Assembly (NCBI RefSeq): GCF_037042905.1
Contig: NC_087245.1
Span: 23,066,001-23,130,000, forward strand
Direction: 5' to 3'
Source of the DNA: Lytechinus pictus
Taxonomy: Eukaryota
DNA length: 64,000 nt
The position numbers and the translations under genes are program-made. Positions 5,483 through 63,880 of this stretch are shown here, one piece after another. Positions within the stretch are counted from its first letter, which is position 1. Each line of letters opens with the position of its first letter. The notes below the pieces were generated by a model. That model saw only the letters and a list, made by a program, of their open reading frames with translations. It did no database searches and was not told where the DNA came from.

Positions 5483-5510
5483 CAGTAGTAGCAGCAGCAG
5501 CAGCAGTAGT

Positions 5511-5542
<32 letters not shown>

Positions 5543-5565
5543 CAGTTCTGGAGGATCCGGTATCC
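5483..5565 (+). CDS. Gene 1 poly-serine linker exon (I-S22-GGSGI-P)
   Basis: Acceptor ttttaattttcctactgcag, donor gtaagt at 5566. 83 nt, phase 2-1, exactly the phase bridge needed between exon B1 (ends phase 2) and exon A2 (starts phase 1). Confidence 0.75.
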
Positions 5566-12806: not shown

Positions 12807-12918
12807 CGCCAGCAACGGAGATGCAACCGATGGAGGTGGAACCGGAGACCATGAAGGAAATGGGACCGGGGGCATCGGAGGAGATGATGACAACGGTGAT
12901 AATGGGGGTGCATTTTAA
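12807..12918 (+). CDS. Gene 1 terminal coding exon, Gly/Asp-rich tail (IASNGDATDGGGTGDHEGNGTGGIGGDDDNGDNGGAF*)
   Basis: Acceptor ttttcattttcataacag. Phase-2 entry from exon B2 gives an open frame to TAA at 12916..12918. GC-rich island in AT-rich surroundings. AATAAA at ~13315. Confidence 0.75.
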
Positions 12919-37480: not shown

Positions 37481-37541
37481 ATGTTTCGCCTTCTCATCCT
37501 TGTGGCCCTCTTGGGCTTCGGGCTCTTACATGTGGAAGCTG
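37481..37541 (+). CDS. Gene 2 first coding exon: signal peptide MFRLLILVALLGFGLLHVEA
   Basis: ATG in gtcATG context. Basic residue, hydrophobic core and V-E-A (-3/-1) cleavage pattern. Phase-1 donor G|gtaagt at 37542. Acceptor caacatcag at 37445. Confidence 0.85.
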
Positions 37542-41124: not shown

Positions 41125-41169
41125 ATAGCAGCAGCAGCAGCAGCAGTGAAAGCGGAAGTAGGAGTAGAG
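41125..41169 (+). CDS. Gene 2 Ser-rich exon (DSSSSSSSESGSRSR)
   Basis: Acceptor atttctatatgtag, donor AG|gtgagt, 45 nt, phase 1-1, in frame with the flanking exons. Confidence 0.75.
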
Positions 41170-43971
41170 GTGAGTGACGTCATCACAAAATGCCATATTT
41201 CCATTAAATGATGTTAAAAGAATTGGATAAAACAACATTGATATTTTTGGAAAAGCAACAACTTTTAAACTGTATATATTGTGGTATTTTTAGAATTGTT
41301 CATAGGGATAAAAATGTTATTCTGGAAGAACAAATCTATTCCGTGAATCATTTAACGAAATAATAACGGTAACAACAATAATAATAATTATAGTGATAAT
41401 AAAAATGATAACAACAATAATAATCTTGATAAAAATAATGATAATAATGATAATAATATTAATAATGATAATATAATAAATTGTCTCCTGGATAGTCTAA
41501 TTGTATATGACATGAATTTGGGATTATATTTTTGGTCTTCGTACATTTTCGAAGGCTAATATAATGTGAATACTTTTAAAACATATCGCAGATCTGCAAA
41601 AACTAGGAACTTACAGCTCATTTTTCTTAAAAGTAAGAGTTAAGTGAAAGTTAACCAATGCTTATAATTCGAAATCCTTTTTTTTTTGTAACGTTCACTT
41701 TTCTCCAGTAATAAGGTCTAGGAACCAGACTCAACCTTGCTAGAAAAAAAAATCGCCGTTACTGGCATGGGAGTTATAACGGCACATTTATTATTATTTT
41801 GTTTTATTATTTCAAACAAGAACAAATCCAATGGGGAACAACATCGGTCACCAATCCCGGAGGAAAAGGTGGGTATTTTCTAATGATTACTTTAATGTAC
41901 TGTCCATCAGAGGGTGTTTTAGCATACGCTTCGCAGACTTTTTTTGGAACGTTAAGAGTCGTTTGAAAATTCTCGTCAAAAACACAATGGACAGATTAGA
42001 GGTCGCTGTCGAAAGTTGAGTGGACCGAGACAGCACATCGTCTTAAGAATTCGTACCGGACGAAAAATTGCAAATATGCAGTGAGTCCAGTCTCCAAGAC
42101 GAAACTGCCGTTTTCATTCAGCGATTTTCGATAACTAAGGACTATAGCGAAAAGCTTATCGGCGTTATAGAAAGCGTCTGCTAAAATGCCCTACTACGTG
42201 CTGGGTGACTTTCGCGACCAGCGATCATCAATCACACAAGTTTGTACTCATGGCCGTAAAAGTAATTTTTTATCAAGACGCGTAAAAGTTTTGAAGGAGC
42301 AAAGAGCATTTTTGATAGTGAAATAAGAGGATTTCTTGCACATTTTGATGAATTTCGTGAGTTTTTTTTTCAGTAGAAATGTTTTTTCTAAAGTGTCTAA
42401 ATTATTTTGGTGGGGGGGGGGGGGGGCGCCTGCCGCTGCATACGACCGGTTGTAATTTGCAATTTGTTTGTGTTTTTAATTTTTAATCGAGAGAATGTCC
42501 ATTTTCTTGTCTTTTTTTTTAGCCTTGGTGACTCTAACCAAGACGCTCGTTCACTGGATTGTAATAGAAATTGCATTAAGATTGAATAGGGACTTTTCAA
42601 TTGTAAACTAAAGTATATAGAAACAAATCCACGAAGAGTATTGATTCCTCGAGTAATATTGAATATATAAGACAATATTGAATCTATGGAATGGGTTAAA
42701 ATTGTGAAGTAAACTCATATAGCTCTCTGTGGTCGCGACGTTTTACCAACCGCTTTCGGCTTCATCAAGCGAATAAACACCAAGCGTGTCTTTCCAAGTG
42801 ATCTTGCAGCCAAGATCACTAGACCGCAGTGAAACCAGGTGATGTGAGCTAAATCATGGAAATTGCTCGTTCTTGCTCGCATTTGTTCGTTGCCATCTGT
42901 CTTTGCTCGCTTGAAGTTTGCTTGCGTTCGGTTGCAGATGTTTAAAAAAATTCAAGCTACCGTGCTAGAATGCAATAGTCCAGGATAGGCCCCATAGATA
43001 ACTGACCAAACCTTGTTTTTTTTTATATATACAATATTTGTTTATGGTTTCTTGTCAATTCGAGGGTGCTGATTACGAATCTGAATGATGCCACTCGTGT
43101 AACCTTGAGCATTTTCCGCAAATTGGCAAAATCCAATATGGCCGCCAAAATATATAAATTACCCATGAAAATCATAAAATTGTCCGCGTATTGGCTATGA
43201 AATGCATGAAATTGTGTGGCAGGAGTGAAAAACTCTCTGAAAAAATAATTTTTGACAAAATATTTATTTTCCTGATATTCAAAATGGCCGCCATAGGCAA
43301 TTGTATACTCTATTATGTACAATATGAATAGGGAAAACTAATTTTCAAAAAATAAGCACTAAACTGCAAAAAATCGCGATGTATGAACGAAGTAATATAT
43401 GCAAATCTTCATTACTAACGAGATATATCATTTATTATGTCATATATGGAAACATTGCTGTATTTTGATATCTAAAATAGCTGCCACTGGCCCAAGGAGT
43501 ATTATTTACAATGGCAAAGGCCGGGGCCAAAAAAAAAAGAGTGAGCACTAAAATGCATATTATTAAGGTAAACGAGTGGAATACTCACTAAAACCATAAT
43601 TGTTAATATGCCATTTATGTGATAAATGCTGTATTTTGAAATCCAAAATGGCTGCCATATGCCCTATATTTATCATGTACAATGCGAATGGCGAAACTAT
43701 TTTTCACACGAGTAAGAAACATAAAATGCATGTAATTGTGATGTACGAGTGAAATATTGTCTGACAACATTGTTTTATAGCAAGACATATCATTTCTTTT
43801 GTCATGCATGAAATAAGTGATTATGAAATTCAAAATGGCCCCTATTTGCCCTAACAGTATTATCTACAATGTGAATCGGGACATATAATTTTGTAAGAAT
43901 TTTGATTTGTTTGACAATCCATATAATCCTGTTGTATGAGTAAAATGTTATTTGAAAACATATTTTTGTTT

Positions 43972-44568
43972 GGATGTTGTTTGAAGGTTTGCATGGTGGT
44001 ATGTACAATCGCTGATGTGGTTTACGGTACACCATGTGAAGTGTTGTAGAAACAGTGGAAAGGAGAAGAGAAGAAATGGATAGGCGAGAAAGTGGAGATT
44101 TGAGAGTAGAGTATTCTTTCTTGAAGGTAGTCCTGAAAAGGACTGTAAACCAGGAAAGATTGATGAGTTGAGAACAGCTTGAGTAGTAGAGCTAGTGAGG
44201 AGATGCTGGCTTGAGTCGGCGAGTAGAGATGATGAGTAGTAGAGAGACTCGACGTTTCGGGCAGGTTGACTGTCCGTCTTCAGGAGACACTCCTGAAGAC
44301 GGACAGTCAACCTGCCCGAAACGTCGAGTCTCTCTACTACTCATCATCTCTACTCGCCGACTCAAGCCAGCATCTCCTCACTAGCTCTACTACTCAAGCT
44401 GTTCTCAACTCATCAATCTTTCCTGGTTTACAGTCCTTTTCAGGACTACCTTCAAGAAAGAATACTCTACTCTCAAATCTCCACTTTCTCGCCTATCCAT
44501 TTCTTCTCTTCTCCTTTCCACTGTTTCTACAACACTTCACATGGTGTACCGTAAACCACATCAGCGAT
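43972..44568. mobile_element. Penelope-like element remnant: inverted pair of pseudo-LTR fragments forming a perfect palindrome
   Basis: Arms 44008..44286 and 44290..44568 (279 bp each, 3-nt spacer ACA). 36-bp extension on the left arm only. 12-bp duplication ATATTTTTGTTT at 43960..43971 and 44567..44578. Hammerhead motif at the centre. Confidence 0.75.
44289..44329 (+). ncRNA. Minimal type I hammerhead ribozyme motif (mirror copy on the - strand, 44247..44286)
   Basis: ACTC-CTGAAGA-C-GGACAG-TCAAC-CTGCCC-GAAAC-GTC^-GAGT: CUGANGA and GAAA cores, helix I ACTC/GAGT, helix II with one mismatch, loopless palindromic ACGT helix III, GUC cleavage triplet. Confidence 0.75.
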
Positions 44569-46364
44569 ATTTTTGTTTATAAATTATAGCATTTCTTCTG
44601 CCATATAGGTGATAAATACTGTATTTTGACATTCAAAATAACCTCTACAAGCCCTAACTAAATTATTTAATATGCGAATAGGGAAACTAATTTTCACAAG
44701 AGTGAGAATCATAAAATGCATATAACTGTGATGCACGAGTAAAATGTTGTCTTAAACATGATTTATAACTGAATACATCACATATTGGTCATGGAGGTAA
44801 TAAATGCTGTACTTTAAAATCCAAAATGGCTGCCATAGGTCCTAAAAGTATTGTGTACATTGTAACATGGGACATATGATTTGGACAGAATTTGGCTTTG
44901 CTTGACTCTAAATATTGCATATGATTGTGAATTATGATGTAAGGGTGAAATATTGTCTAAAACCATGGTTTCTAACGAGATATATCATAATGTTGTGTAA
45001 TTAAGGTGATAAATGCTGCATTTTTAATTGAAAATGGCCACCATAGGCCCTTATCGTAAAATATACAATTTGAGTGGAGACAAATAATGTTCACAAAAAG
45101 GGCATATGGCAGCCATTTTGAATGTTGAAATACAGTATTTATCACCTAAATTACATAAGATATGATATATTTTGTTATAAATCATGTTTTCAGACAATAT
45201 TTCACTCATACATCACCATTTGGCCAAGCAAAGCCAAATTCTATTGAAATGATTTGTTCCCATTCACATTGTGCATTATACCGTAAGGGCCTGTAGCGGC
45301 CATTTTGACTTTCAAATAACAGTATTTATCACCTAACTGGCAGAATAAATGATATATCTTAATATAAATTATGCTTTCAGACAGTATTTTACTCATATAT
45401 CACTATTACGTGCATTTATGGTGCTCACTCCTGTGAATATTGGTTTACCACTTTGCATTGTACATATTACAGTTAATGTCTATGGCGGCCATTTTAAAAG
45501 TCTAAATACAGTAGTTAACACAAACTTGAAACCTGAATGATATATTTCGTTAGAAAATACGTTTTAAGACAGTATCCCATTAATTTATCACATATATAGT
45601 GCTCACTTTTGTGATTTCTTTGCTCCCCCTTTCTCATTGCGCATAATACTTTTAGGGCCTTTGGCAGCCATTTTGAATATCAAAATACAACATTCATCAC
45701 ATACATGGCATAATAATACTATATTTCGTTAACAAATATGTTTTTAGTCAGTATTCTACTCGTTTAATCTTAATAATATGCATTTTAGTGATCACTCTTG
45801 TGAATGTTTTGGACCCCATTGCCATTGTATGCAATACTGTTTGGGCCAGTGGTGGCTATTTTAGATATCACAATACAGCAATGTTCCCATATATGACATA
45901 ATAAATGATATATCTCATTAGTAATGATGATTTGCATATATTACTTCGTTCATACATCGCGATTTTTTGCAGTTTAGTGCTCATTTTTGTGAAAATTAGT
46001 TTTCCCTATTCATATTGTACATAATAGAGTATACAAGGGCCTATGGCAGCCATTTTGAATATCAGGAAAATAAATATTTTGTCAAAAATTATTTTTTCAG
46101 AGAGTATTTCACTCCTGTCACACAATTTCATGCATTTCATAGCCAATGTGCGGACAATTTTATGATTTTCATGGGTAATTTGCATATTTTGGCGGCCATA
46201 TTGGATTTTGCCAATTTGCGGAAAATGCTCAAGGTTACACGAGTGGCATCAATCAGATTCGGGATCAGCACCCTCGAATTGACAAGAAACCATAAAAAAA
46301 TGTTGTATATATAAAAAACAAGGTTATGCCTCTTCTATCCTGGACTACAAGGCCTCTGCGTTAA

Positions 46365-47054: not shown

Positions 47055-47492
47055 TTAGGTAAGAGGGGGCCTTTAGACTGAGTATTAACCTCGTATTAGC
47101 TCGTTCCATTGCGTTGTGTTCCTTGGTCTGCGTTCGGGAAATCCGTAGCTAAACGTAAGCCAGACTTAATCGAATTTCGCTCATAATTCACAGCAGAGAA
47201 TACCTCCTGATTATAAAAGCATTCGAAAGATAGCTTTGGAAACTTTCGAAGATGGTATGCTCTTTCAGGATCTATACCATAAACTTTTCAGAAAAAGTTT
47301 CATTAAACATGTAATTTTTGAGTTGTTATATTCTTTTTTGTACTCACTGACTCGGTATGAGTATTTTGAAGTAAAGCTTAACCATGTATTTACAAAACTG
47401 TAACAGTGACAATTTAGTCTTTAGACAGGTTTAAAACATGTTAAAGGTGGAAGATTCTATTATTTGATGTTATGATTTTTTTTTGCATACAG

Positions 47493-47681
47493 GCAGCAAT
47501 AGGGTTGAATGTGATGGAGGACCTTTACAAAGAACAGAGCTCTTGACTGGCCTCCAACCGCCCTGCACTGTGACGGCTAATTTCAATAGCGACGCCGATA
47601 ATGCAATCCTGAATTTCTGCGCTAATCAACTCGATACCACTGACCCAGCTAGCGTTGATACAGCTGACTGTTATGACTTGG
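47493..47681 (+). CDS. Gene 2 exon, first half of galectin/ConA-fold-like domain (GSNRVECDGGPLQRTELLTGLQPPCTVTANFNSDADNAILNFCANQLDTTDPASVDTADCYDL)
   Basis: Acceptor tttttttttgcatacag, donor G|gtatgt, 189 nt, phase 1-1, open frame. Confidence 0.8.
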
Positions 47682-48227
47682 GTATGTCTTCCACATAAGA
47701 TAGTTTTCATGATTAATAGGGCCTGGGGATGATTTATGGGGGTAAGGGGTAGATCCAGGATTTTGAAAGAGGGGGGGGGGGGCACATTTTCCCAAGGAAA
47801 AATTTGACAAGCAAAAGAAACAGAAAAAAGGTCTTCACTTTCAAGGGAGGGGGGTGCGCACTTCTGCTTTACGGCATTTTTACATTACAAATTTTAATTG
47901 TGCCTCTCAAAGGAGGGGGGGGGGGCAAAGTCGGCCCGTGCCACCCTCCCTTTCTCTCCCCCTGGATCCGCCAGTGACAGAGGTGCTGAATGAAGGTGAT
48001 ATGGTAGGAAAAAATCATATTTTCTCGTTTTTGTTGTTATTTTTTATTTATATTTTGCATTTTTTTACATTGTCCATGGCCAATAACTTGATTTTAACTG
48101 GGATACAATAAATGAAATACAAATATAATAAAACAGTGATGTATCACCAGGGAACATGTACCATTTATCATTTACTAATGAAAAGACTCAAACAATTACT
48201 TTTCATTTGATAAAATTACATTTGCAG

Positions 48228-48479
48228 AGATAAGCTCAACAGATGCTCCATCCATAGTGTTCAAGAACGGGCAAATTATCAAGCAGACTGCAGCACAACC
48301 ATTCTTTGAGAAAGGGGTCTTGACTATACTCGAAATCACTATCAACTATTCCAAATGCACGGTGTTAAACAGGAACAACGGTCTCGAGATACCAATCGAA
48401 TCACCAAACGAAATTTCCTTTAGGTACTTGTATGTGTCAACCACCACAGGACAGCATTCAACAATAGATGCTCAGGAAG
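48228..48479 (+). CDS. Gene 2 exon, second half of the domain (EISSTDAPSIVFKNGQIIKQTAAQPFFEKGVLTILEITINYSKCTVLNRNNGLEIPIESPNEISFRYLYVSTTTGQHSTIDAQE)
   Basis: Acceptor catttgcag, donor AAG|gtaatc, 252 nt, phase 1-1, open frame. Confidence 0.8.
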
Positions 48480-48961
48480 GTAATCATTCATTATATTTCT
48501 ATCTAGGGGTTGTTACACATAGACTTAATTGTTACTAAAACTAACGCAACTCAAGCTTAAATGCCGACGCACACATGATATTTTACGCACAATTTTATAT
48601 TGATTGATTGATTGATAGCGCGCGTGTACTTAGAATGAGTTGACCAACGCGATGATGCGTTTTATACTGTATACATGCAACTGGGAATTTAAATACGACA
48701 GTAATTACGTCACATTTACATCTTTGAGAAATATTGCATGGGTGTTTTTTTTTAATAGGGGCAATTCGACATAAATGTGACATGTGTGTATCGATAAAAT
48801 TAGATTTCTATGATAGAATTACACTACCACTATCCAGGGGGAAAACAGAAAGCGGGGAATAAGATGTGTAAAGAGAAAACAGTGTATGACCCTTTTTTTT
48901 TTGGGGGGGGGCAAGTGTCATAGCACACAGCCCTTTATTATTGGATAATAATTGAGGTTAT

Positions 48962-49889
48962 CAGGGGCGGACCCAGCTTTCACCAATAGGGGGGGCCGAA
49001 AAATATTTTCATCAACATTTTTCTCTATTGGCCGCTATAATCTGTTGTTTTTTTTTTGGGGGGGGGTTGGTTTTTCATGGGGTAGTCCTAACTAAAGACT
49101 GATGTTTTAAGTATTTGTTATTTTTTATTGTTATGAACAAGATATAAGATATCTCATGTGGTCTTGATATATAATGCGAGCGCAAAGCGTGAGCTCAAAT
49201 TCTTTGATATTTCGTGTCCTTAGACCTGAAGATTCTGAGCAGTTTTGATAATCATGAACAAAGATAAGTATCTAACTAAACAATGCGAGCGCGTATTGCT
49301 GTAGATGGTAAAAGGACATTTTGAGAAATTTTGGTAAGAATTCCCAAAGAGGATAGGTATCTGACAAATCAAACACTGCGCGCAGCGCGAGCTGAAAACT
49401 TTGATATAGAGTTTAGATCTATATTAACAATTTGTATAAATCAAACAAAATAATGAAAGCTTGATGTGCGAGCTGAAATATTGTGTGCAAATTGATGTCA
49501 GAATTGGATATATTAAGTGCCATTTAATTCTCTTGAGTGAGATTCATTACACAGGTAATGCGAGCGCGAAGCGCGAGCGAAAAAAATTATTTCAAGTCTA
49601 TTTTCCAATTATCCAACTCACCTTTTTTCTCGTTTCCTTTCGGGGTCGGGTTGGCCGTTACGAGGCTGTAAATTGCACATCATGGGTAAAAGACCTCTTT
49701 CTTACTTTTGTTTCTGTTTTCATTGTTTCTATCAAGTTAAAGAGTACACTTTTTCTGCAGGTTGCCAAAAATAGGGGGCGGGGCCGGCTCGGCCCACTCC
49801 TGGATCTGCGCCTGTAAAGAGTAAACTTTTCTGCAGGTTGCCAAAAAATAGGGGGGGGGGCGGCTCGGCCTACTCCTGGATCCGCGCCT
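48962..49889. mobile_element. hAT-like non-autonomous element related to ~7332..9206, with a duplicated right end
   Basis: Start CAGGGGCGGACCCAGCTTT..CCAATAGG, end CTGGATCCGCGCCTG. ~75-bp tandem duplication at ~49740..49889. GCGAAGC motifs. Confidence 0.7.
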
Positions 49890-50669
49890 GGTTATCTAGG
49901 TTTAGTGATGTATTCGCCGTTGTAACCATCGCGGGTAGGCACTTTTGGCTCAACCACGTAGACGGACCTCTACGACGTTAGATGATTTTGGAAGACACTT
50001 TTGGTAAAAAAAAAGTTGTGTGACATAGGAATTTTGTTTTTCGCATCCACAACGGGAACATTCAATATGCGGTGCGTATGCAAAATTCTAGTTGCTACTT
50101 TGGTAACAGCGGCATCTCCGATTTGGGATGATTTTCGAGAGCCACACGCACGTGTGTCGTCTTAGCACTCGAGCTAGCTGTGGAAGCAACAGCCAATCAG
50201 CATGCCTATACCTAAAAAGCGCCTGTCATCAAAATTTAGCTGGAGTAATGCAGATCTACAATCTAAATAAAAACAGTAAAAATCAAAGCCACGTTGATTA
50301 ATCCACGTCACTGTACGTGAAAGACTAATTGACGGATGTCATAGATCTCCGCTTTTTTTTCTTACTTGAAATTCTAACATTTGCTTGAAGTTGAGCACTT
50401 GCAATGCATTTCATGGGATCCATGCAAGGCAAGCCCCGGGCCCGCCGTAACGGCTACACCTGAGCTAATTAGGCAGATGGATGGTAGAACAATAATTTCG
50501 CAGAAAAACCGCAAAGTGCCTGTTATCAGAAGTCAAGTTTCATCACCTACATTTTTACATCATTTAAAACCTTTCACAAGGGAGTGTTTATGACAATTAA
50601 CTTTGCAAGGGTGAGTGTATCGTATTTCTAATTTACGATTTTCTTTTCTCTCAAAACTTTTCTTTCTAG

Positions 50670-50684
50670 TTCCTGATAGTTCGG
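50670..50684 (+). CDS. Gene 2 15-nt micro-exon (VPDSS)
   Basis: Long pyrimidine tract ending ttttctttctag, then TTCCTGATAGTTCGG and gtaagt. Phase 1-1, no stop in frame. Confidence 0.65.
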
Positions 50685-51321
50685 GTAAGTAAACTAATTA
50701 GATCGAACATCAGCACAGTTCTATTGATCACTGTCATTACTTTCTTTTCTTCTTTTCTGACGGGTTATCTCCTCCTCACTGTAATATGGAATATATTGAC
50801 AAAAAAACCCACAACAAAATGCTAGGGGTAATCTGTCCTAGCTCACAGTTACTAAAAAGGAAATCCACTGAAATTTCAGGGCTTGTTAATAATAATAATA
50901 GTATACAAAATTTATGAAGCGCTTTATACGAAAGATTCATAGCGCTAAGAAAGAAGGAAAAAAGAATATAAATATAAGATATCTCAGTGAAAGAACAACA
51001 AAGAAACTGAAAGTGAAAACACCATTACGAAAAATCAATTATACATAACAAATAAACAGATAATCGGTGAATATATACAACTTAAATGTTGAGTGTTGAT
51101 CACTGAAATAATTATTGCAATAGCCTAGGTTGAATGTAGACATTAGAATCAGGAAGTAGATCAGAGGCAAAAAAAACCCAAAGACAATCATGAAAATGTG
51201 GAGGATGCAGTTGAAAAGACTACAGAGAAAAAGAGATGTATTATGCATTGACCTATATGAGAGACAGGCCTCCAACGCGATTCCTTCTTTGATTGAATGA
51301 GATCCGTCGCCTATTACATTT

Positions 51322-51451
51322 GAAGGACAAACCCACCCCCAACAAAACGTTGATTTGAATAAACAAAAATAAAATCAAAACAAGCAAGTGGTATTGTTGG
51401 TTTTTCTCTATTGATTCAAATCAACAATTTTCTGGGGTGGATTTGACCTTA
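51322..51451. mobile_element. Internally deleted MITE of the 9595..10055 family
   Basis: aaggacaaacccacccc..gttgatttgaat / attcaaatcaac..ggggtggatttgacctt. Confidence 0.7.
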
Positions 51452-51642
51452 TAAATGGGCAATGGTCAGTAGAAAGAACAGAGGTTATTGGCTGATGTAA
51501 CAATTTATTGAACATGGAATCATCTTGGAAGTTATCTTGCCCCAAATTCACCACTTGAATACCCACGATCCACAACTGAATGACATGTTAAAAAAAGTAC
51601 ACTAAAAAATAATAAGCATTTATTTTGGGTTTGTTTTTATAG

Positions 51643-54600
51643 GTAGTGACAGCAGTAACAGCGGTAAGTAGTTTGAAAGTACAATTGGTCTAAAGATCGG
51701 CACAAATTGGCCCTTCCATCTTCCGCTTATTAGTTTCATAATCTAAAATCAAGTGAAGTCAGAGAATAACTATTTAATGAAAATGTGATTATCTTTATAG
51801 TGATCGTTCCCCCGACCCCGCAACCTGAAGCACACTCGCTCAGTCCTGAATGGTTTAATGACAAGAAAGTGGCTTTACTGTATCGCAAAAACTTATTTTT
51901 TGCCTCAATAGGGGCTCCATAATAGCAGATATTCCCCAAAATACGCAGAATAAAGAAAGGGGTGGGTGACTTCGGCAGTGGTCAGAATAAAGAACAGAGT
52001 TTTTGTTTGGTGTAACTATTTACTGAAAATGTGATCATCATTAAGGTTATCTTGCCCCAATTCCAACACTTGAAATACCCACGATCCGCCCCTGAATGAA
52101 ATGTTAAAACAAAACCGGGAGGCGCGATAGCTCAGTCGGTAGAGCGGGGGACTCGTATTCCGGTGACCCGGGTTCGATTCCCACTTGGTGCGCTAGTGCC
52201 CTTTGGTAAGGCATTAATCCTCAGTACCAGGTCCTTCGGAGGGGACCTTAAGCCGTCGGTCCTCTGGTTGCTTGCCTACAAGCATTCATGCTTTATTAGC
52301 AATCAGGTTAAAAAAAAATCACCACCAAAGTACATTAAAAGATAATGAGCATTTTATTTATGTTTGTTTTTATAGATAGTGACGGCAGTAACAGTGGTAA
52401 GTAGTTTGGAAGTGCAATTGATTTAAAAATCGGCACAAAATGACTCTTTCAACGTCTGCTAATTAGTGTCATAATCAAACAAATTAATGAAATATAATCG
52501 AAAATCAAGTGAAGTCAGAGTACAATTATTCAATGAAAATTTGATTATCTTTAGAGTGATCGTTCCCCCGACACCGCCGCTTGAAGCACACTCGCTCCGT
52601 CTCTGAGTGGTTTCATGACAATAAAAGTGGCTTTACAACATAGCAGAAACTTATTTTTGGGCCTCAATAGGTGCTCCATAATGATATCATTTTTGAATAT
52701 TTTGTCAAAATCTATCAAAAATTTGATTTCTTTTGATTAAAAATGTCATTTGTTCTCACAGCTCTTAAGACATTTTGCCCCATATGCCATGTCTAGCCCC
52801 CTCATTTTTTTTGGTGGTGGTGGGGGGGGGGTTGATTCCCTACACCACTGGTAATGAGTTTGGTTCTGATCAGATTATATCGCCAGTAAATAAGAAATTA
52901 TTCATTCATGCAATTTTGGATCCCAAAGTAGTTTCAAAGAACAGAGGTTATTGGCTGGTGAAACTATTTTTTTAAAGAATAGGATCATCATTAAGGTTAT
53001 CTTTAAGATCACCATTAAGGTAATCTTGCCCCAACTCCACCAAGTGAAATACCCACCATCCGCCCCTGAATGAAATGTTAAAACAATGTACATTAAAAGA
53101 TATTAAGCATTTTATTTATGTTTGTTTTTATAGGCAGTGACAGCGGTAAGAGCGGTAAGTAGTTTGGAAGTGCAATTGGTTTAAAAATCGGCACAAAATG
53201 ACCCCCTCAACTTCAGCTAATTACTCTCATGATGAAACAAATTAAAAAAAATAATAGAATATCAAGTGGAGTCGGATTATAGTTATTGAATGAAAATGTG
53301 ATTATCTTTAGAGTGATCGTTCCCCCGACCCCGCCACTTAAAGCACATTCGCTCCGTCCCTGAATGGTTTCAAAACAATAAAGGTGGCTTTACTGCAGAG
53401 CAGAAGCTCATTTTTTTTGCCTCAATAGGGGCTCCATAGTAGCAGATTTTTCCCATAAATACGCAAAATAAAAAAAATGGGGTGGGTGACCTCGGCAGTT
53501 GTCAGAGAAAGAACAGAAGTTATTGGCTGGTGAAACTATTTACTGCAAATGGAGTCATCATTAAGGTTATCTTACCCCAACTCCACCACTTGAAATACCC
53601 ACGATCCGCCCCTGAATGAAATGTTCAAACAAAGTACATTAAAAGATAATAAGCATTTAATTTTGTGTTTGTTTTTATAGTAAGTGACAGCGGTAACAGC
53701 GGTAAGTAGTTTGAAAGTGCAATTGATCTAAAAATCGGCACAAATTGGCCCCTCCATCTTCTGCTAATTAGTTTCATAATCGAAAATCAAGTGAAGTCAG
53801 AGAATAACTATTCAATGAAAATGTGATTATCTTAAGCATGATCGTTCCCCCTACCCCGATACTTGAAGCACACTCGCCCTTATCCCTGAGCGGTTTCCAT
53901 GACAATAAAAGTGGCTTTACAACATAGTAAAAGCTTGTTTTTTGCCTCAATAAGGGCTCCATAATGATATTATTTCGGAATGTTTTGTCAAAATCTGTCA
54001 AAAATTTGATTTCTTTTAAGTAAAAACGTCATTTGTTCTCACAGCTCTTAAGACATTTTGCCACATATGCCATGTCTAGCCCCCTCATTCTTTTTTTTTT
54101 TGGTAATGGTGGAGGGGGGGTTGAGTCCCTACATCACTGGTAATGAGTTTGGTTCTGATCAGATTATATCGCCAGTAAATAAGAAATTATTCATTCATGC
54201 AATGTTGGATCCCAAAATAGTTTCAAAGAACAGAGGTTATTGGCTGGTGAAACTATTTTTTTAAGAATAGGATCATCATTAAGGTTATCTTGCCCGAACT
54301 CCTCCGAGTGAAATACCCACCATCCGCCCCTGAATGAAATGTTAAAACAATGTACATTTAAAGATATTAAGCATTTTAATTATGTTTGTTTTTATAGGCA
54401 GTGACAGCGGTAACAGCGGTAAGTAGTATGGAAGTGCAATTGATCTAAAAATCGGCACAAATTGGCCCCTCCATCTTTTGCTAATTAGTTTCATAATCGA
54501 AAATCAAGTGAAGTCAGAGAATAACTATTCAATGAAAATGTGATTATCTTAAGCATGATCGTTCCCCCTACCCCGATACTTGAAGCACACTCGCCCTTAT

Positions 54601-57600
54601 CCCTGAGCGGTTTCCATGACAATAAAAGTGGCTTTACAACATAGTAAAAGCTTGTTTTTTGCCTCAATAAGGGCACCATAATGATATTATTTTTGGAATG
54701 TTTTGTCAAAATCTGTCAAAAATTTGATTTCTTTTAAGTAAAAACGTCATTTGTTCTCACAGCTCTTAATACATTTTGCCCAATATGCCATGTCTGGCCC
54801 CTCATTCTTTTTTTTGGTGGTGGTGGGGGGGGGGGGGGAGGGGTTGAATCCCTACATCACTGGTAATGAGTTTGGTTCTGATCAGATTATATCGCCAGTA
54901 AATAAGAAATTATTCATTCATGCAATGTTGGGTCCCAAAGTAGTTTCAAAGAACAGAGGTTATTGGCTGGTGAAACTTTTTTTTTTAAAGAATAGGATCA
55001 TCAATAAGGTTATCTTGCCCGAACTCCTCCGAGTGAAATACCCACCATCCGCCCCTGAATGAAATGTTAAAACAATGTACATTTAAAGATATTAAGCATT
55101 TTATTCATGTTTGTTTTTATAGGCAGTGACAGCGGTAACAGTGGTAAGTAGTTTGGAAGTGCAATTGATTTAAAAATCGGCACAAAATGACTCTTTCAAC
55201 GTCTGCTAATTAGTGTCATAATCAAACAAATTAATGAAATATAATCGAAAATCAAGTGAAGTCAGAGTACAATTATTCAATGAAAATTTGATTATCTTTA
55301 GAGTGATCGTTCCCCCGACACCGCCGCTTGAAGCACACTCGCTCCGTCTCTGAGTGGTTTCATGACAATAAAAGTGGCTTTACAACATAGCAGAAACTTA
55401 TTTTTGGGCCTCAATAGGTGCTCCATAATGATATCATTTTTGAATATTTTGTCAAAATCTATCAAAAATTTGATTTCTTTTGATTAAAAATGTCATTTGT
55501 TCTCACAGCTCTTAAGACATTTTGCCCCATATGCCATGTCTAGCCCCCTCATTTTTTTTGGTGGTGGTGGGGGGGGGGGGGTTGATTCCCTACACCACTG
55601 GTAATGAGTTTGGTTTGGATCAGATTATATCGCCAGTAAACAAGAAATTATTCATTCATGCAATGTTGGATCCCAAAGTAGTTTCAAAGAACAGAGGTTA
55701 TTGGCTGGTGAAACTATTTTTTTAAAGAATAGGATCATCATTAAGGTTATCTTTAAGATCACCATTAAGGTAATCTTGCCCCAACTCCACCAAGTGAAAT
55801 ACCCACCATCCGCCCCTGAATGAAATGTTAAAACAATGTACATTAAAAGATATTAAGCATTTTATTTATGTTTGTTTTTATAGGCAGTGACAGCGGTAAG
55901 AGCGGTAAGTAGTTTGGAAGTGCAATTGGTTTAAAAATCGGCACAAAATGACCCCCTCAACTTCAGCTAATTACTCTCATGATGAAACAAATTAAAAAAA
56001 ATAATAGAATATCAAGTGGAGTCGGATTATAGTTATTGAATGAAAATGTGATTATCTTTAGAGTGATCGTTCCCCCGACCCCGCCACTTAAAGCACATTC
56101 GCTCCGTCCCTGAATGGTTTCAAAACAATAAAGGTGGCTTTACTGCAGAGCAGAAGCTCATTTTTTTTTGCCTCAATAGGGGCTCCATAGTAGCAGATTT
56201 TTCCCATAAATACGCAAAATAAAAAAATGGGGTGGGTGACCTCGGCAGTTGTCAGAGAAAGAACAGAAGTTATTGGCTGGTGAAACTATTTACTGCAAAT
56301 GGAATCATCATTAAGGTTATCTTACCCCAACTCCACCACTTGAAATACCCACGATCCGCCCCTGAATGAAATGTTCAAACAAAGTACATTAAAAGATAAT
56401 AAGCATTTAATTTTGTGTTTGTTTTTATAGTAAGTGACAGCGGTAACAGCGGTAAGTAGTTTGAAAATGCAATTGATCTAAAAATCGGCACAAATTGGCC
56501 CCTCCATCTTCTGCTAATTAGTTTCATAATCGAAAATCAAGTGAAGTCAGAGAATAACTATTCAATGAAAATGTGACTATCTTAAGCATGATCGTTCCCC
56601 CTACCCCGATACTTGAAGCACACTCGCCCTTATCCCTGAGCGGTTTCCATAATAAAAGTGGCTTTACAACATAGTAAAAGCTTGTTTTTTTGCCTCAATA
56701 AGGGCTCCATAAAGATATTATTTTGGAATGTTTTGTCAAAATCTGTCAAAAATTTGATTTCTTTTAAGTAAAAACGTCATTTGTTCTCACAGCTCTTAAG
56801 ACATTTTGCCACATATGCCATGTCTAGCCCCCTCATTCTTTTTTTTTTGGTAATGGTGGAGGGGGGGTTGAGTCCCTACATCACTGGTAATGAGTTTGGA
56901 TCTGATCAGATTATATCGCCAGTAAATAAGAAATTATTCATTCATGCAATGTTGGATCCCAAAATAGTTTCAAAGAACAGAGGTTATTGGCTGGTGAAAC
57001 TATTTTTTTAAGAATAGGAACATCATTAAGGTTATCTTGCCCGAACTCCTCCGAGTGAAATACCCACCATCCGCCCCTGAATGAAATGTTAAAACAATGT
57101 ACATTTAAAGATATTAAGCATTTTATTTATGTTTGTTTTTATAGGCAGTGACAGCGGTAACAGCTGTAAGTAGTATGGAAGTGCAATTGATCTAAAAATC
57201 GGCACAAATTGGCCCCTCCAGCTAATTACTCTCATGATGAAACAAATTTAAAAAAATAATAGAATATCAAGTGGAGTCGGATTATAGTTATTGAATGAAA
57301 ATGTGATTATCTTTAGAGTGATCATTCCCCCGACCCCGCCACTTAAAGCACATTCGCTCCGTCCCTGAATGGTTTCAAAACAATAAAGGTGGCTTTACTG
57401 CAGAGCAGAAGCTCATTTTTTTTTTGCCTCAATAGGGGCTCCATAGTAGCAGATTTTTCCCATAAATACGCAAAATAAAAAAAATGGGGTGGGTGACCTC
57501 GGCAGTTGTCAGAGAAAGAACAGAAGTTATTGGCTGGTGAAACTATTTACTGCAAATGGAATCATCATTAAGGTTATCTTACCCCAACTCCACCACTTGA

Positions 57601-60600
57601 AATACACACGATCCGCCCCTGAATGAAATGTTCAAACAAAGTACATTAAAAGATAATAAGCATTTAATTTTGTGTTTGTTTTTATAGTAAGTGACAGCGG
57701 TAACAGCGGTAAGTAGTTTGAAAGTGCAATTGATCTAAAAATCGGCACAAATTGGCCCCTCCATCTTCTGCTAATTAGTTTCATAATCGAAAATCAAGTG
57801 AAGTCAGAGAATAACTATTCAATGAAAATGTGATTATCTTAAGCATGATCGTTCCCCCTACCCCGATACTTGAAGCACACTCGCCCTTATCCCTGAGCGG
57901 TTTCCATGACAATAAAAGTGGCTTTACAACATAGTAAAAGCTTGTTTTTTGCCTCAATAAGGGCTCCATAATGATATTATTTTGGAATGTTTTGTCAAAA
58001 TCTGTCAAAAATTTGATTTCTTTTAAGTAAAAACGTCATTTGTTCTCACAGCTCTTAAGACATTTTGCCACATATGCCATGTCTAGCCCCCTCATTCTTT
58101 TTTTTTTGGTAATGGTGGAGGGGGGGTTGAGTCCCTACATCACTGGTAATGAGTTTGGTTCTGATCAGATTATATCGCCAGTAAATAAGAAATTATTCAT
58201 TCATGCAATGTTGGATCCCAAAATAGTTTCAAAGAACAGAGGTTATTGGCTGGTGAAACTATTTTTTTAAGAATAGGATCATCATTAAGGTTATCTTGCC
58301 CGAACTCCTCCGAGTGAAATACCCACCATCCGCCCCTGAATGAAATGTCAAAACAATGTACATTTAAAGATATTAAGCATTTTATTTATGTTTGTTTTTA
58401 TAGGCAGTGACAGCGGTAACAGCGGTAAGTAGTATGGAAGTGCAATTGATCTAAAAATCGGCACAAATTGGCCCCTCCATCTTTTGCTAATTAGTTTCAT
58501 AATCGAAAATCAAGTGAAGTCAGAGAATAACTATTCAATGAAAATGTGATTATCTTAAGCATGATCGTTCCCCCTACCCCGATACTTGAAGCACACTCGC
58601 CCTTATCCCTGAGCGGTTTCCATGACAATAAAAGTGGCTTTACAACATAGTAAAAGCTTGTTTTTTGCCTCAATAAGGGCACCATAATGATATTATTTTT
58701 GGAATGTTTTGTCAAAATCTGTCAAAAATTTGATTTCTTTTAAGTAAAAACGTCATTTGTTCTCACAGCTCTTAATACATTTTGCCCAATATGCCATGTC
58801 TGGCCCCTCATTCTTTTTTTTGGTAATGGTGGAGGGGGGGGGGGGTTGAGTCCCTACATCACTGGTAATGAGTTTGGTTCTGATCAGATTATATCGCCAG
58901 TAAATAAGAAATTATTCATTCATGCAATGTTGGATCCCAAAATAGTTTCAAAGAACAGAGGTTATTGGCTGGTGAAACTTTTTTTTTTAAAGAATAGGAT
59001 CATCAATAAGGTTATCTTGCCCGAACTCCTCCGAGTGAAATACCCACCATCCGCCCCTGAATGAAATGTTAAAACAATGTACATTTAAAGATATTAAGCA
59101 TTTTATTCATGTTTGTTTTTATAGGCAGTGACAGCGGTAACAGCGGTAAGTAGTATGGAAGTGCAATTGATCTAAAAATCGGCACAAATTGGCCCCTCCA
59201 TCTTCTGCTAATTAGTTTCATAATCGAAAATCAAGTGAAGTCAGAGAGTAACTATTCAATGAAAATGTGATTATCTTAAGCATGATCGTTCCCCCTACCC
59301 CGATACTTGAAGCACACTCGCCCTTATCCCTGAGCGGTTTCCATGACAATAAAAGTGGCTTTACAACATAGTAAAAGCTTGTTTTTTGCCTCAATAAGGG
59401 CTCCATAATGATATTATTTTTTGAATGTTTTGTCAAAATCTGTCAAAAATTTGATTTCTTTTAAGTAAAAAACGTCATTTGTTCTCACAGCTCTTAAGAC
59501 ATTTTGCCACGTATGCCATGTCTAGCCCCCTCATTCTTTTTTTTGGGGGAATGGTGGAGGGGGGGTTGAGTCCCTATACTGGTAATGAGTTTGGTTCTGA
59601 TCAGATTATATCGCCAGTAAATAAGAAACTATTCATTCATGCAATGTTGGATCCCAAAATAGTTTCAAAGAACAGAGGTTATTGGCTGGTGAAACTATTT
59701 TTTTAAGAATAGGAACATCATTAAGGTTATCTTGCCCAAACTCCTACAAGTGAAATACCCATCATCCGCCCCTGAATGAAATGTTAAAACAATGAACATT
59801 TAAAGATATTAAGCATTTTATTAATGTTTGTTTTTATAGGCAGTGACAGTGGTAACAGCGGTAAGTAGTATGGAAGTGCAATTGATCTAAAAATCGGCAA
59901 AATTGGCCCCTCCATCTTCTTCTAATTAGTTTCATAATCGAAAATCAAGTGAAGTCAGAGAATAACTATTCAATGAAAATGTGATTATCTTAAGCATGAT
60001 CGTTCCCCCTACCCCGATACTTGAAGCACACTCGCCCTTATCCCTGAGCGGTTTCCATGACAATAAAAGTGGCTTTACAACATAGTAAAAGCTTGTTTTT
60101 TGCCTCAATAAGGGCACCATAATGATATTATTTTTGGAATGTTTTGTCAAAATCTGTCAAAAATTTGATTTCTTTTAAGTAAAAACGTCATTTGTTCTCA
60201 CAGCTCTTAATACATTTTGCCCAATATGCCATGTCTGGCCCCTCATTCTTTTTTTGGTGGTGGTGGGGGGGGGGGGGGGTTGAATCCCTACATCACTGGT
60301 AATGAGTTTGGTTCTGATCAGATTATATCGCCAGTAAATAAGAAATTATTCATTCATGCAATTTTGGATCCCAAAGTAGTTTCAAAGAACAGAGGTTATT
60401 GGCTGGTGAAACTATTTTTTTAAAGAATAGGATCATCATTAAGGTTATCTTTAAGATCACCATTAAGGTAATCTTGCCCCAACTCCACCAAGTGAAATAC
60501 CCACCATCCGCCCCTGAATGAAATGTTAAAACAATGTACATTAAAAGATATTAAGCATTTTATTTATGTTTGTTTTTATAGGCAGTGACAGCGGTAAGAG

Positions 60601-63600
60601 CGGTAAGTAGTTTGGAAGTGCAATTGGTTTAAAAATCGGCACAAAATGACCCCCTCAACTTCAGCTAATTACTCTCATGATGAAACAAATTAAAAAAAAT
60701 AATAGAATATCAAGTGGAGTCGGATTATAGTTATTGAATGAAAATGTGATTATCTTTAGAGTGATCGTTCCCCCGACCCCGCCACTTAAAGCACATTCGC
60801 TCCGTCCCTGAATGGTTTCAAAACAATAAAGGTGGCTTTACTGCAGAGCAGAAGCTCATTTTTTTTGCCTCAATAGGGGCTCCATAGTAGCAGATTTTTC
60901 CCATAAATACGCAAAATAAAAAAATGGGGTGGGTGACCTCGGCAGTTGTCAGAGAAAGAACAGAAGTTATTGGCTGGTGAAACTATTTACTGCAAATGGA
61001 ATCATCATTAAGGTTATCTTACCCCAACTCCACCACTTGAAATACCCACGATCCGCCCCTGAATGAAATGTTCAAACAAAGTACATTAAAAGATAATAAG
61101 CATTTAATTTTGTGTTTGTTTTTATAGTAAGTGACAGCGGTAACAGCGGTAAGTAGTTTGAAAGTGCAATTGATCTAAAAATCGGCACAAATTGGCCCCT
61201 CCATCTTCTGCTAATTAGTTTCATAATCGAAAATCAAGTGAAGTCAGAGAATAACTATTCAATGAAAATGTGATTATCTTAAGCATGATCGTTCCCCCTA
61301 CCCCGATACTTGAAGCACACTCGCCCTTATCCCTGAGCGGTTTCCATGACAATAAAAGTGGCTTTACAACATAGTAAAAGCTTGTTTTTTTGCCTCAATA
61401 AGGGCTCCATAATGATATTATTTTGGAATGTTTTGTCAAAATCTGTCAAAAATTTGATTTCTTTTAAGTAAAAACGTCATTTGTTCTCACAGCTCTTAAG
61501 ACATTTTGCCACATATGCCATGTCTAGCTCCCTCATTTTATTTTTTTGGTGGTGGTGGAGGGGGGGGGGGTTGAGTCCCTACATCACTGGTAATGAGTTT
61601 GGTTCTGATCAGATTATATCGCCAGTAAATAAGAAATTATTCATTCATGCAATGTTGGATCCCAAAATAGTTTCAAAGAACAGAGGTTATTGGCTGGTGA
61701 AACTATTTTTTTAAGAATAGGATCATCATTAAGGTTATCTTGCCCGAACTCCTCCGAGTGAAATACCACCAACCGCCCCTGAATGAAATGTTAAAACAAT
61801 GTACATTAAAAGATATTAAGCATTTTATTTATGTTTGTTTTTATAGGCAGTGACAGCGGTAAGAGCGGTAAGTAGTTTGGAAGTGCAATTGGTTTAAAAA
61901 TCGGCACAAAATGACCCCCTCAACTTCAGCTAATTACTCTCATGATGAAACAAATTAAAAAAAATAATAGAATATCAAGTGGAGTCGGATTATAGTTATT
62001 GAATGAAAATGTGATTATCTTTAGAGTGATCGTTCCCCCGACCCCGCCACTTAAAGCACATTCGCTCCGTCCCTGAATGGTTTCAAAACAATAAAGGTGG
62101 CTTTACTGCAGAGCAGAAGCTCATTTTTTTTGCCTCAATAGGGGCTCCATAGTAGCAGATTTTTCCCATAAATACGCAAAATAAAAAAATGGGGTGGGTG
62201 ACCTCGGCAGTTGTCAGAGAAAGAACAGAAGTTATTGGCTGGTGAAACTATTTACTGCAAATGGAATCATCATTAAGGTTATCTTACCCCAACTCCACCA
62301 CTTGAAATACCCACGATCCGCCCCTGAATGAAATGTTCAAACAAAGTACATTAAAAGATAATAAGCATTTAATTTTGTGTTTGTTTTTATAGTAAGTGAC
62401 AGCGGTAACAGCGGTAAGTAGTTTGAAAGTGCAATTGATCTAAAAATCGGCACAAATTGGCCCCTCCATCTTCTGCGAATTAGTTTCATAATCGAAAATC
62501 AAGTGAAGTCAGAGAATAACTATTCAATGAAAATGTGATTATCTTAAGCATGATCGTTCCCCCTACCCCGATACTTGAAGCACACTCGCCCTTATCCCTG
62601 AGCGGTTTCCATGACAATAAAAGTGGCTTTACAACATAGTAAAAGCTTGTTTTTTTGCCTCAATAAGGGCTCAATAATGATATTATTTTGGAATGTTTTG
62701 TCAAAATCTGTCAAAAATTTGATTTCTTTTAAGTAAAAACGTCATTTGTTCTCACAGCTCTTAAGACATTTTGCCACATATGCCATGTCTAGCTCCCTCA
62801 TTTTATTTTTTTGGTGGTGGTGGAGGGGGGGGGGGGGTTGAGTCCCTACATCACTGGTAATGAGTTTGGTTCTGATCAGATTATATCGCCAGTAAATAAG
62901 AAACTATTCATTCATGCAATGTTGGATCCCAAAATAGTTTCAAAGAACAGAGGTTATTGGCTGGTGAAACTATTTTTTTTAAGAATAGGAACATCATTAA
63001 GGTTATCTTGCCCAAACTCCTACAAGTGAAATACCCATCATCCGCCCCTGAATGAAATGTTAAAACAATGAACATTTAAAGATATTAAGCATTTTATTAA
63101 TGTTTGTTTTTATAGGCAGTGACAGTGGTAACAGCGGTAAGTAGTATGGAAGTGCAATTGATCTAAAAATCGGCACAAATTGGCCCCTCCATCTTCTTCT
63201 AATTAGTTTCATAATCGAAAATCAAGTGAAGTCAGAGAATAACTATTCAATGAAAATGTGATTATCTTAAGCATGATCGTTCCCCCTACCCCGATACTTG
63301 AAGCACACTCGCCCTTATCCCTGAGCGGTTTCCATGACAATAAAAGTGGCTTTACAATATAGTAAAAGCTTGTTTTTTGCCTCAATAAGGGCACCATAAT
63401 GATATTATTTTTGGAATGTTTTGTCAAAATCTGTCAAAAATTTGATTTCTTTTAAGTAAAAACGTCATTTGTTCTCACAGCTCTTAATACATTTTGCCCA
63501 ATATGCCATGTCTGGCCCCTCATTCTTTTTTTGGTGGTGGTGGGGGGGGGGGGGGGGTTGAATCCCTACATCACTGGTAATGAGTTTGGTTCTGATCAGA

Positions 63601-63880
63601 TTATATCGCCAGTAAATAAGAAATTATTCATTCATGCAATTTTGGATCCCAAAGTAGTTTCAAAGAACAGAGGTTATTGGCTGGTGAAACTATTTTTTTA
63701 AAGAATAGGATCATCATTAAGGTTATCTTTAAGATCACCATTAAGGTAATCTTGCCCCAACTCCACCAAGTGAAATACCCACCATCCGCCCCTGAATGAA
63801 ATGTTAAAACAATGTACATTAAAAGATATTAAGCATTTTATTTATGTTTGTTTTTATAGGCAGTGACAGCGGTAAGAGCG
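51643..63880 (+). CDS. Gene 2: nineteen 21-nt micro-exons encoding Ser/Asp/Gly heptads, consensus (G/V)SDSG(N/K)S
   Basis: Exon starts 51643, 52376, 53134, 53681, 54398, 55123, 55884, 56431, 57145, 57688, 58404, 59125, 59840, 60582, 61128, 61847, 62393, 63116, 63860. Each is preceded by gtttgtttttatag and followed by gtaagtagt. All are phase 1-1 and join without a stop. Confidence 0.85.
52117..52326 (+). mobile_element. tRNA-derived SINE inserted in the first array intron
   Basis: A box TAGCTCAGTCGG, B box GGTTCGATTCC, non-tRNA body (gtgccctttggtaaggcattaatcc) and A-rich tail. It interrupts the ..aaacaaagtacatt.. sequence that is intact in other units. Confidence 0.85.

Follow-up and report, generated by a model that had tools for sequence, protein, structure and literature searches.

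The question raised by this locus is whether a tandem repeat with the appearance of a satellite can be the coding centre of a gene. The repeat begins at position 51643 of the window analysed here (64,000 nucleotides of the sea urchin Lytechinus pictus, forward strand, assembly GCF_037042905.1, contig NC_087245.1, positions 23,066,001 to 23,130,000) and extends beyond its end. We conclude that the apparent satellite is very probably the middle of one protein-coding gene, in which 42 exons of 21 nt, all of phase 1-1, lie in tandem units of 0.5-0.76 kb and encode one heptad each.

The initial annotation of the window had claimed 19 such cassettes. A regular-expression scan with the pattern TTTTTATAG / 21 nt / GTAAGTAG (pyrimidine tract ending in AG, exon, donor) recovers 19 of 19 at exactly the positions claimed, from 51643-51663 to 63860-63880, with a spacing of 543-761 nt. 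A looser scan of the entire 64-kb window for AG-N21-GTAAGT returns the same 19 cassettes and none besides. In phase 1, where each exon's final base opens the next codon, the 21-mers give the 19 predicted heptads, and the coding share of the array is ~3%, likewise as claimed. The array is absent from the output of Tandem Repeats Finder run on the window because its period is greater than 500 nt.

A search of the 812-Mb genome with the 33-place pattern gives 38 matches on the forward strand, none on the reverse strand and none for a backwards control. All 38 are inside C1:23117637-23146727, C1 being the contig of the window. Given the absence of control matches, these counts exclude a chance origin of the cassettes; the array is confined to one locus and one strand, and its reading as a genome-wide satellite does not hold. 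To follow it past the window, the window numbering was carried on through 40 kb of downstream sequence (extended coordinates). The looser scan of the window together with this sequence produces 43 rows, 42 of which are 21-nt cassettes located at extended 51643..80721; the remaining row, a 24-nt match at 103681, is unrelated to the array and was discarded. The full array consists of 42 units over 29 kb and ends at C1:23146721, the window holding the first 19. All 42 exons are 21 nt long and phase 1-1, with no indels and no stops across the cassettes.

Six coding exons precede the array (see the table), bordered by AG and GT, the internal ones being phase 1-1. When exon 5 was used as a phmmer query against 1.84 billion representative proteins, 7 matches were obtained. 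The top match, a protein of 345 residues that is 100% identical and bears the heptad tract, is RefSeq XP_063956129.1 of L. pictus, named "dentin sialophosphoprotein-like". Translation of the six upstream exons, micro-exons 1-20 and 8 intron bases reproduces XP_063956129.1 exactly, its C-terminal Gly-Lys-stop being the donor after micro-exon 20 read into the intron (GGT AAG TAG). The same readthrough is common to all 42 donors, for example at 51664-51671, where the phase-1 exon end meets the intron start GTAAGTAG; any unspliced donor therefore halts translation immediately. This arrangement may act as a built-in fail-safe, or it may give rise to short isoforms. The earlier expectation that gene finders would hide the array needs correction: the automatic public model does contain 20 cassettes, though it is truncated, without the other 22 and the C-terminal domain described below. 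The name given to the protein reflects composition only. In dentin sialophosphoprotein the repeat tract normally lies within one exon, whereas here it is divided among 21-nt exons, the protein matches no Pfam family, and its folded domain is galectin-like.

Splicing of the first cassettes can be followed in RNA. Transcript contigs of two studies (runs X1 and X6) and two raw RNA runs were mapped to positions 47300-52420 of the window, which had been checked beforehand to be free of internal repeats. No run found to contain the query is registered as RNA; four small runs typed 'RNA?' (X1-X4) contain 0.36 of the sampled query words, the two exons making up ~0.4 of the query. The joint 47680>48227 (GT..AG) is found in one 528-nt X1 contig (depth 89) and in separate X6 contigs. 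The joint 48479>51642 is present in X1 and X6 with the letters of the 15-nt exon between its two sides, and the joint 51662>52375 (GT..AG, with 21 letters on the short side) occurs in both as well. In contigs of both studies exon 5 is thus spliced to the 15-nt exon, and this in turn to micro-exons 1 and 2. Unique intron bins have a read depth of 0, and since only one genomic locus contains exon 5, a processed DNA copy does not account for the joints. Approximately 30 letters of the X1 contig beyond micro-exon 2 depart from the intron sequence, which fits a third micro-exon. The proposal that the micro-exons continue the frame of the upstream signal-peptide gene is supported directly by these contigs for micro-exons 1-2, and for micro-exons 1-20 by the identity with XP_063956129.1. 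In the raw RNA runs X7 and X8 the gene is hardly expressed: exon 4 is covered to a depth of no more than 2.2, exon 5 has no coverage, and no joints of the gene are seen.

Downstream of the array, a tblastn search with the orthologue from L. variegatus locates two segments of high similarity, extended 86429-86587 (98% identical to residues 350-402 of the orthologue) and extended 89601-89837 (91% identical to residues 404-482). Exons of 39, 39, 33 and 27 nt, together with the 42nd cassette, were located in the interval leading from the array to this C-terminal domain; they have AG/GT borders and lengths divisible by 3. As judged from these sequence features, the gene most likely has six more coding exons beyond the window, of 39, 39, 33, 27, 162 and ~250 nt (the last), the final two encoding a second homologous domain. 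The C-terminal domain is 31% identical to the N-terminal one (E 3.5e-5, tblastn) and is a diverged copy of it. A strict regular expression found no terminal exon resembling the L. variegatus C-terminus within 14 kb; the L. pictus frame may instead run on to a stop at extended 89847-89849. The conceptual full frame is open over 680 residues, in a gene of ~52 kb. Of its 2040 coding nt, 882 (43%) are in 21-nt exons and ~55% in exons of 48 nt or less, and its conceptual spacer of 349 residues (S 134, G 79, D 59, N 36) has a pI of ~4. The 27-nt proline-rich exon has a tandem acceptor, CAGCAG (extended 84648-84653), which matches a one-residue (Ala) difference among the L. variegatus isoforms.

The L. 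variegatus orthologue is built alike: a heptad tract occupies the corresponding position, and the models join both domains. Its RefSeq isoforms X1-X15 amount, within the cluster, to 11 distinct sequences that are 454-486 residues long. Compared with the longest, the others are shorter by 1, 4, 7, 7, 11, 12, 14, 14, 31 and 32 residues, and all of these differences lie in the tract. The longest isoform has 13 heptads, against 42 encoded in L. pictus. A second 'dentin sialophosphoprotein-like' database protein of L. pictus has 534 residues, GNDSGNS heptads and two copies of the N-terminal domain, whereas the present assembly has a single N-terminal domain locus and no GNDSGNS heptad; for this reason it probably represents a different assembly or haplotype, or else a fused model. 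It had been suggested that the length of the tract is tuned both by copy number and by in-frame skipping. The 13 heptads of L. variegatus, the 7- and 14-residue differences among its isoforms and the second L. pictus protein lend this indirect support; in the L. pictus RNA contigs no skipping is seen.

A further feature of the array concerns the nine exons of the GSDSGKS (K) type, such as that at 53134-53154, in each of which GGTAAGAG occurs internally after 12 nt. As read from the sequence, its use as an alternative donor would keep the frame and leave a 12-nt exon of 4 codons, making the unit 3 residues (9 nt) shorter. Differences of 4 and 11 residues also occur among the L. variegatus isoforms.

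Alignment of the 42 units indicates how the array grew. Single monomers share 81-97% identity (median 88% over 296 self-alignments of at least 450 nt). For multi-unit blocks of 4-8 kb the identity is 94-97%; the block at 54225-62151, for instance, matches 62220-70128 at 95.6%. The identity of these blocks shows that the array grew by higher-order duplications, as unequal crossing-over would give. A K-type exon is always followed by a V-type exon, with a short intron of 525-527 nt between them. The centre of the intron (~260 nt) resembles a dispersed repeat present on many contigs (66-87% identity; 39 scored of 231 first-look candidates), and the exon-proximal intron flanks are unique to the array locus. 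Structures in the introns that would pair neighbouring splice sites, and might thereby preserve the order of the exons, were considered and rejected: a 704-nt intron has a z of +1.34, with 19 of 20 shuffles folding at least as well, and only three inverted repeats, short and imperfect, were found.

Several observations weigh against the reading of the whole array as coding. The runs that bear the spliced contigs are typed 'RNA?' and '?', that is, their type is guessed, and RNA support extends only to micro-exons 1-2. Cassettes 3-20 depend on an automatic gene model of unseen evidence, and cassettes 21-42, with the link to the C-terminal domain, depend on the identity of their signal sequences and on the orthologue. 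The C-terminal domain is found in no L. pictus protein of a 5.8-billion collection (43-139 and 140-2000 residues). Nor are the exons conserved more strongly than the introns: the exon window has 58 substitutions, compared with a median of 58.5 over 354 intron windows, 108 of which are also free of indels. Between duplicated blocks (five overlapping and therefore non-independent pairs) the exons differ by 4.0-6.3% and the introns by 1.7-3.9%, so that the exons change as fast or faster. Conservation was accordingly rejected as proof of coding, and because the exons are no better conserved than the introns, coding is not provable from sequence alone. What does stand out is the fixed exon length and the splice flanks. 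The gap columns between blocks number 0 in exons and 53-146 in introns, and the 23 splice-flank positions differ by 0-1.9%, significantly lower in two of the five pairs. This pattern of substitutions and gaps is the one expected of a low-complexity spacer for which nothing counts but the reading frame and the splice signals.

Some of these points lead to an alternative in which use of the array is confined to its proximal part. Transcripts would then stop short within it, either by reading through an intron or by polyadenylation in one, and the distal cassettes and the C-terminal domain would be left off that mRNA or would be a decaying remnant. The Gly-Lys-stop of XP_063956129.1 after micro-exon 20 is what such a transcript would encode, both L. 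pictus database proteins end in GK, and, as noted above, the C-terminal domain is missing from the L. pictus proteins of the collection. On the other hand, cassettes 21-42 retain their acceptor, donor and exact 21 nt, the C-terminal exons are undamaged and remain in frame, at 91-98% identity to an orthologue whose models join both domains, and automatic models often break in repeats. We therefore consider it unlikely that the distal half is unused, and take the absence of the C-terminal domain from the collection to mean that the public model is truncated, be it through an artefact or as a genuine short isoform.

It could also be argued that the copy number of 42 is partly an artefact of assembly, the true array being shorter or longer. 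The 534-residue L. pictus protein, with its GNDSGNS heptads and two N-terminal domains against the one locus here, would agree with this. However, the duplicated blocks differ by 3-6% rather than 0% and there is no N in 104 kb, a situation that long reads can resolve; an artefact of this kind appears improbable. As for a non-coding intronic tandem repeat, with the splice-like motif a by-product and the heptad frame due to chance, the lack of exon conservation and the origin of the unit centre in a dispersed repeat would suit it, but it has virtually no likelihood left in view of the spliced contigs carrying micro-exons 1 and 2 with GT..AG borders, the 20 cassettes in the RefSeq protein, the heptad tract at the same place in the orthologue, and the 42 cassettes without an indel or a stop.

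The structure of the encoded protein was predicted with AlphaFold2 from a six-sequence alignment. The model shows an all-beta domain at residues ~50-200, with block-mean pLDDT values of 59-93, mostly above 80. The heptad tract (residues 203-341 of the model) has a pLDDT below 50 and is predicted to be disordered. The N-terminus is hydrophobic, with a modelled helix over residues 3-14. The best Foldseek match of the folded domain is the N-terminal carbohydrate-recognition domain (N-CRD) of galectin-9 (E 2e-6, TM by target 0.63), and galectin-9 is also the best match in VIA-align (Z 13.3, 134 aligned residues, rmsd 2.9, 12% identity). Other ConA-like folds, the levanase C-domain and SPRY, are close behind in VIA-align (Z 12.7-12.2), and with scores so nearly equal only the superfold is established. 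No Pfam family is found at E values up to 10 for XP_063956129.1 and two further proteins, the galectin Gal-bind_lectin signature being absent, and Pfam searches with single exons and whole proteins give nothing significant. ESM Atlas features point to PF12248-like domains (score 0.95), which serves as a lead only. The architecture, as modelled, is a putative signal peptide, a lectin-like domain, a long acidic disordered spacer and a second lectin-like domain.

The relatives of the gene are found in echinoids only, among the representative proteins searched with phmmer. Four of the 7 matches had their sources examined: three are echinoid RefSeq/EukProt clusters and one is a 98-aa protein of a Logan assembly. 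The remaining three matches are 629-3385 residues long. The relative in S. purpuratus likewise ends in a 7-residue repeat.

These features suggest how the gene would work if the whole array is coding. It begins at 37481 with the signal-peptide-like exon, followed by the N-terminal galectin-fold domain (exons 4-5) and the acidic Ser/Gly/Asp/Asn spacer. Recognition of each cassette would depend on a long pyrimidine tract together with a near-consensus donor (G/GTAAGTA), and the array introns are probably removed successively during transcription. The frame would survive the skipping of any cassette, failure to splice at any donor would lead to Gly-Lys-stop, as in the RefSeq model, and copy number would be altered by unequal crossing-over. 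It is tentatively proposed, with the balance tilted somewhat against it, that the array is a splice-tunable 'molecular ruler' of variable copy number, in which the 42 micro-exons, with their identical splice signals, are joined in order or skipped in any combination to give a 7-residue ladder between two secreted lectin-like heads, while the array quickly expands and contracts. The role that would follow from the domain arrangement, that of a secreted lectin-like protein with two heads and a reach governed by spacer length, is doubtful at present.

Several known systems resemble parts of this gene. The tandem-repeat type galectins, galectin-8 and -9, have two galectin-fold domains and, between them, a flexible linker that differs in length from one splice form to another. 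The sea urchin protein differs from them in its ~12% identity, its signal-peptide-like N-terminus, and a linker that is ten times longer and built from micro-exons. Tandem exon-plus-intron units whose number or splicing sets the length of a protein occur in the P-exons of avian fast troponin T, the PEVK exons of titin and kringle IV-2 of LPA; these belong to other proteins and have larger exons or far fewer copies.

The micro-exon genes (MEGs) of Schistosoma are described in one report as having a signal peptide followed by many tiny symmetric exons, the frame-keeping skipping of which yields a pool of similar secreted proteins, and are there stated to be restricted to platyhelminths (PMC4350168). 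The sea urchin gene is similar in its signal-peptide-like start followed by many very small symmetric exons. It differs in having 42 near-identical micro-exons in tandem, each accompanied by an intron, placed between two folded domains. No sequence relationship to a flatworm MEG family emerges from the 7 phmmer matches, four of which were traced to their sources, and the likeness is one of analogy, not homology. In Tetrahymena, thousands of leucine-rich repeat (LRR) genes contain tandem 90-bp exons of phase 2 that encode folded LRR units; these arrays are reported to have a uniform phase, a repeat visible at the nucleotide level, growth by unequal crossing-over and an association with retroelements (PMC6564038). 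The sea urchin array shares with them a unit made of one fixed-length exon and its intron, the uniform phase, the nucleotide-level repeat, growth as by unequal crossing-over and an association with retroelement sequence, but has 21-nt exons of phase 1, encodes a disordered linker and occupies a single locus. The closest functional analogues are the flatworm MEGs, and the closest genomic anatomy is that of the Tetrahymena 90-bp exon arrays. Symmetric exons that encode disorder are reported to expand by tandem duplication within genes (Schad et al. 2013, PMC3632108). The sea urchin array is an extreme example of such tandem symmetric-exon duplication in exon size (21 nt), copies (42) and coding density (~3%). 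In the open literature on micro-exons, tandem exon duplication, 21-bp exons and sea urchins (subscription journals being outside the scope) neither the gene nor the array is described.

Table 1. Features of the gene and array within the window (window coordinates).
Feature	Position	Strand	Evidence
Exon 1, with start codon; N-terminus hydrophobic, signal-peptide-like; 3' end in phase 1; donor GTAAGT	37481..37541	+	tblastn, XP_063956129.1 residues 1-20, 100%; spliced model = XP_063956129.1
Exon 2, 45 nt, phase 1-1, Ser-rich	41125..41169	+	tblastn; spliced model = XP_063956129.1
Exon 3, 48 nt, phase 1-1	41821..41868	+	tblastn; spliced model = XP_063956129.1
Exon 4, 189 nt, phase 1-1, first half of galectin-fold domain	47493..47681	+	contigs X1 and X6; spliced model = XP_063956129.1
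Exon 5, 252 nt, phase 1-1, second half of galectin-fold domain	48228..48479	+	contigs X1 and X6; single genome locus; phmmer; XP_063956129.1
Exon 6, 15-nt micro-exon, VPDSS	50670..50684	+	letters inside joint 48479>51642 in contigs X1 and X6; XP_063956129.1
Array, part inside window	51643..63880	+	19 units, 543-761 nt each, one 21-nt exon per unit
Micro-exon 1, GSDSSNS	51643..51663	+	cassette scan; spliced in contigs of runs X1 and X6
SINE-like insertion, tRNA-derived, in the intron between micro-exons 1 and 2, outside the coding unit	52118..52330	+	ARAGORN tRNA-Thr(CGT) 52122-52193; end ~52330 by eye
Micro-exon 2, DSDGSNS	52376..52396	+	cassette scan; joint 51662>52375 GT..AG in contigs of X1 and X6
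Micro-exon 3, GSDSGKS	53134..53154	+	cassette scan, phase-1 reading, XP_063956129.1
Micro-exon 4, VSDSGNS	53681..53701	+	cassette scan, phase-1 reading, XP_063956129.1
Micro-exon 5, GSDSGNS	54398..54418	+	cassette scan, phase-1 reading, XP_063956129.1
Micro-exon 6, GSDSGNS	55123..55143	+	cassette scan, phase-1 reading, XP_063956129.1
Micro-exon 7, GSDSGKS	55884..55904	+	cassette scan, phase-1 reading, XP_063956129.1
Micro-exon 8, VSDSGNS	56431..56451	+	cassette scan, phase-1 reading, XP_063956129.1
Micro-exon 9, GSDSGNS, final base T, following heptad begins with L	57145..57165	+	cassette scan, phase-1 reading, XP_063956129.1
Micro-exon 10, LSDSGNS	57688..57708	+	cassette scan, phase-1 reading, XP_063956129.1
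Micro-exon 11, GSDSGNS	58404..58424	+	cassette scan, phase-1 reading, XP_063956129.1
Micro-exon 12, GSDSGNS	59125..59145	+	cassette scan, phase-1 reading, XP_063956129.1
Micro-exon 13, GSDSGNS	59840..59860	+	cassette scan, phase-1 reading, XP_063956129.1
Micro-exon 14, GSDSGKS	60582..60602	+	cassette scan, phase-1 reading, XP_063956129.1
Micro-exon 15, VSDSGNS	61128..61148	+	cassette scan, phase-1 reading, XP_063956129.1
Micro-exon 16, GSDSGKS	61847..61867	+	cassette scan, phase-1 reading, XP_063956129.1
Micro-exon 17, VSDSGNS	62393..62413	+	cassette scan, phase-1 reading, XP_063956129.1
Micro-exon 18, GSDSGNS	63116..63136	+	cassette scan, phase-1 reading, XP_063956129.1
Micro-exon 19, GSDSGKS, last in window	63860..63880	+	cassette scan, phase-1 reading, XP_063956129.1

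The surroundings of the gene contain further repeats. RNA runs cover the SINE-like element listed in the table at depths in the hundreds to thousands, which would be expected of a transcribed family of repeats but not of the gene described here. The 5.6-kb intron between exons 3 and 4 contains a near-perfect 561-bp palindrome (44008-44568, 99.5%) with the look of a foldback element, flanked by inverted repeats of 600-690 bp (43016-43691 and 45628-46321; 89-92%). A 76-bp unit in 2.0 tandem copies (91% matches) is located at 49738-49890, in the intron between exons 5 and 6, and RNA contigs with many odd joints around 47760-47960 and 48890-49860 suggest dispersed repeats there. Upstream of the gene, 20611-28084 holds two nested or adjacent remnants of non-LTR (long terminal repeat) retrotransposons, with Exo_endo_phos and RVT_1 open reading frames on both strands, among them an open reverse transcriptase frame of 615 residues at 23177-25024 on the minus strand. 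A candidate upstream paralogue (tblastn, 4917-5561 and 12799-12906) was rejected, its translation being only microsatellite-like low complexity.

The locus illustrates that a satellite-looking stretch of 29 kb can consist to ~3% of protein-coding exons, and that a standard annotation takes in only half of this stretch and loses a whole domain. The 42 near-identical 21-nt exons with identical signals offer a clean natural system for the recognition of micro-exons and the keeping of their order. If the array is indeed a molecular ruler, it would be among the largest arrays of identical micro-exons in any animal, and would provide a test bed for the ordered pairing of dozens of identical donors and acceptors and for the recognition of exons of 21 nt. 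For the sea urchins, the gene represents an undescribed family of predicted secreted proteins, so far of echinoids only, in which a fast-evolving spacer, acidic and Ser-rich, links two galectin-fold domains; the length of this spacer differs between sister species and perhaps between individuals.

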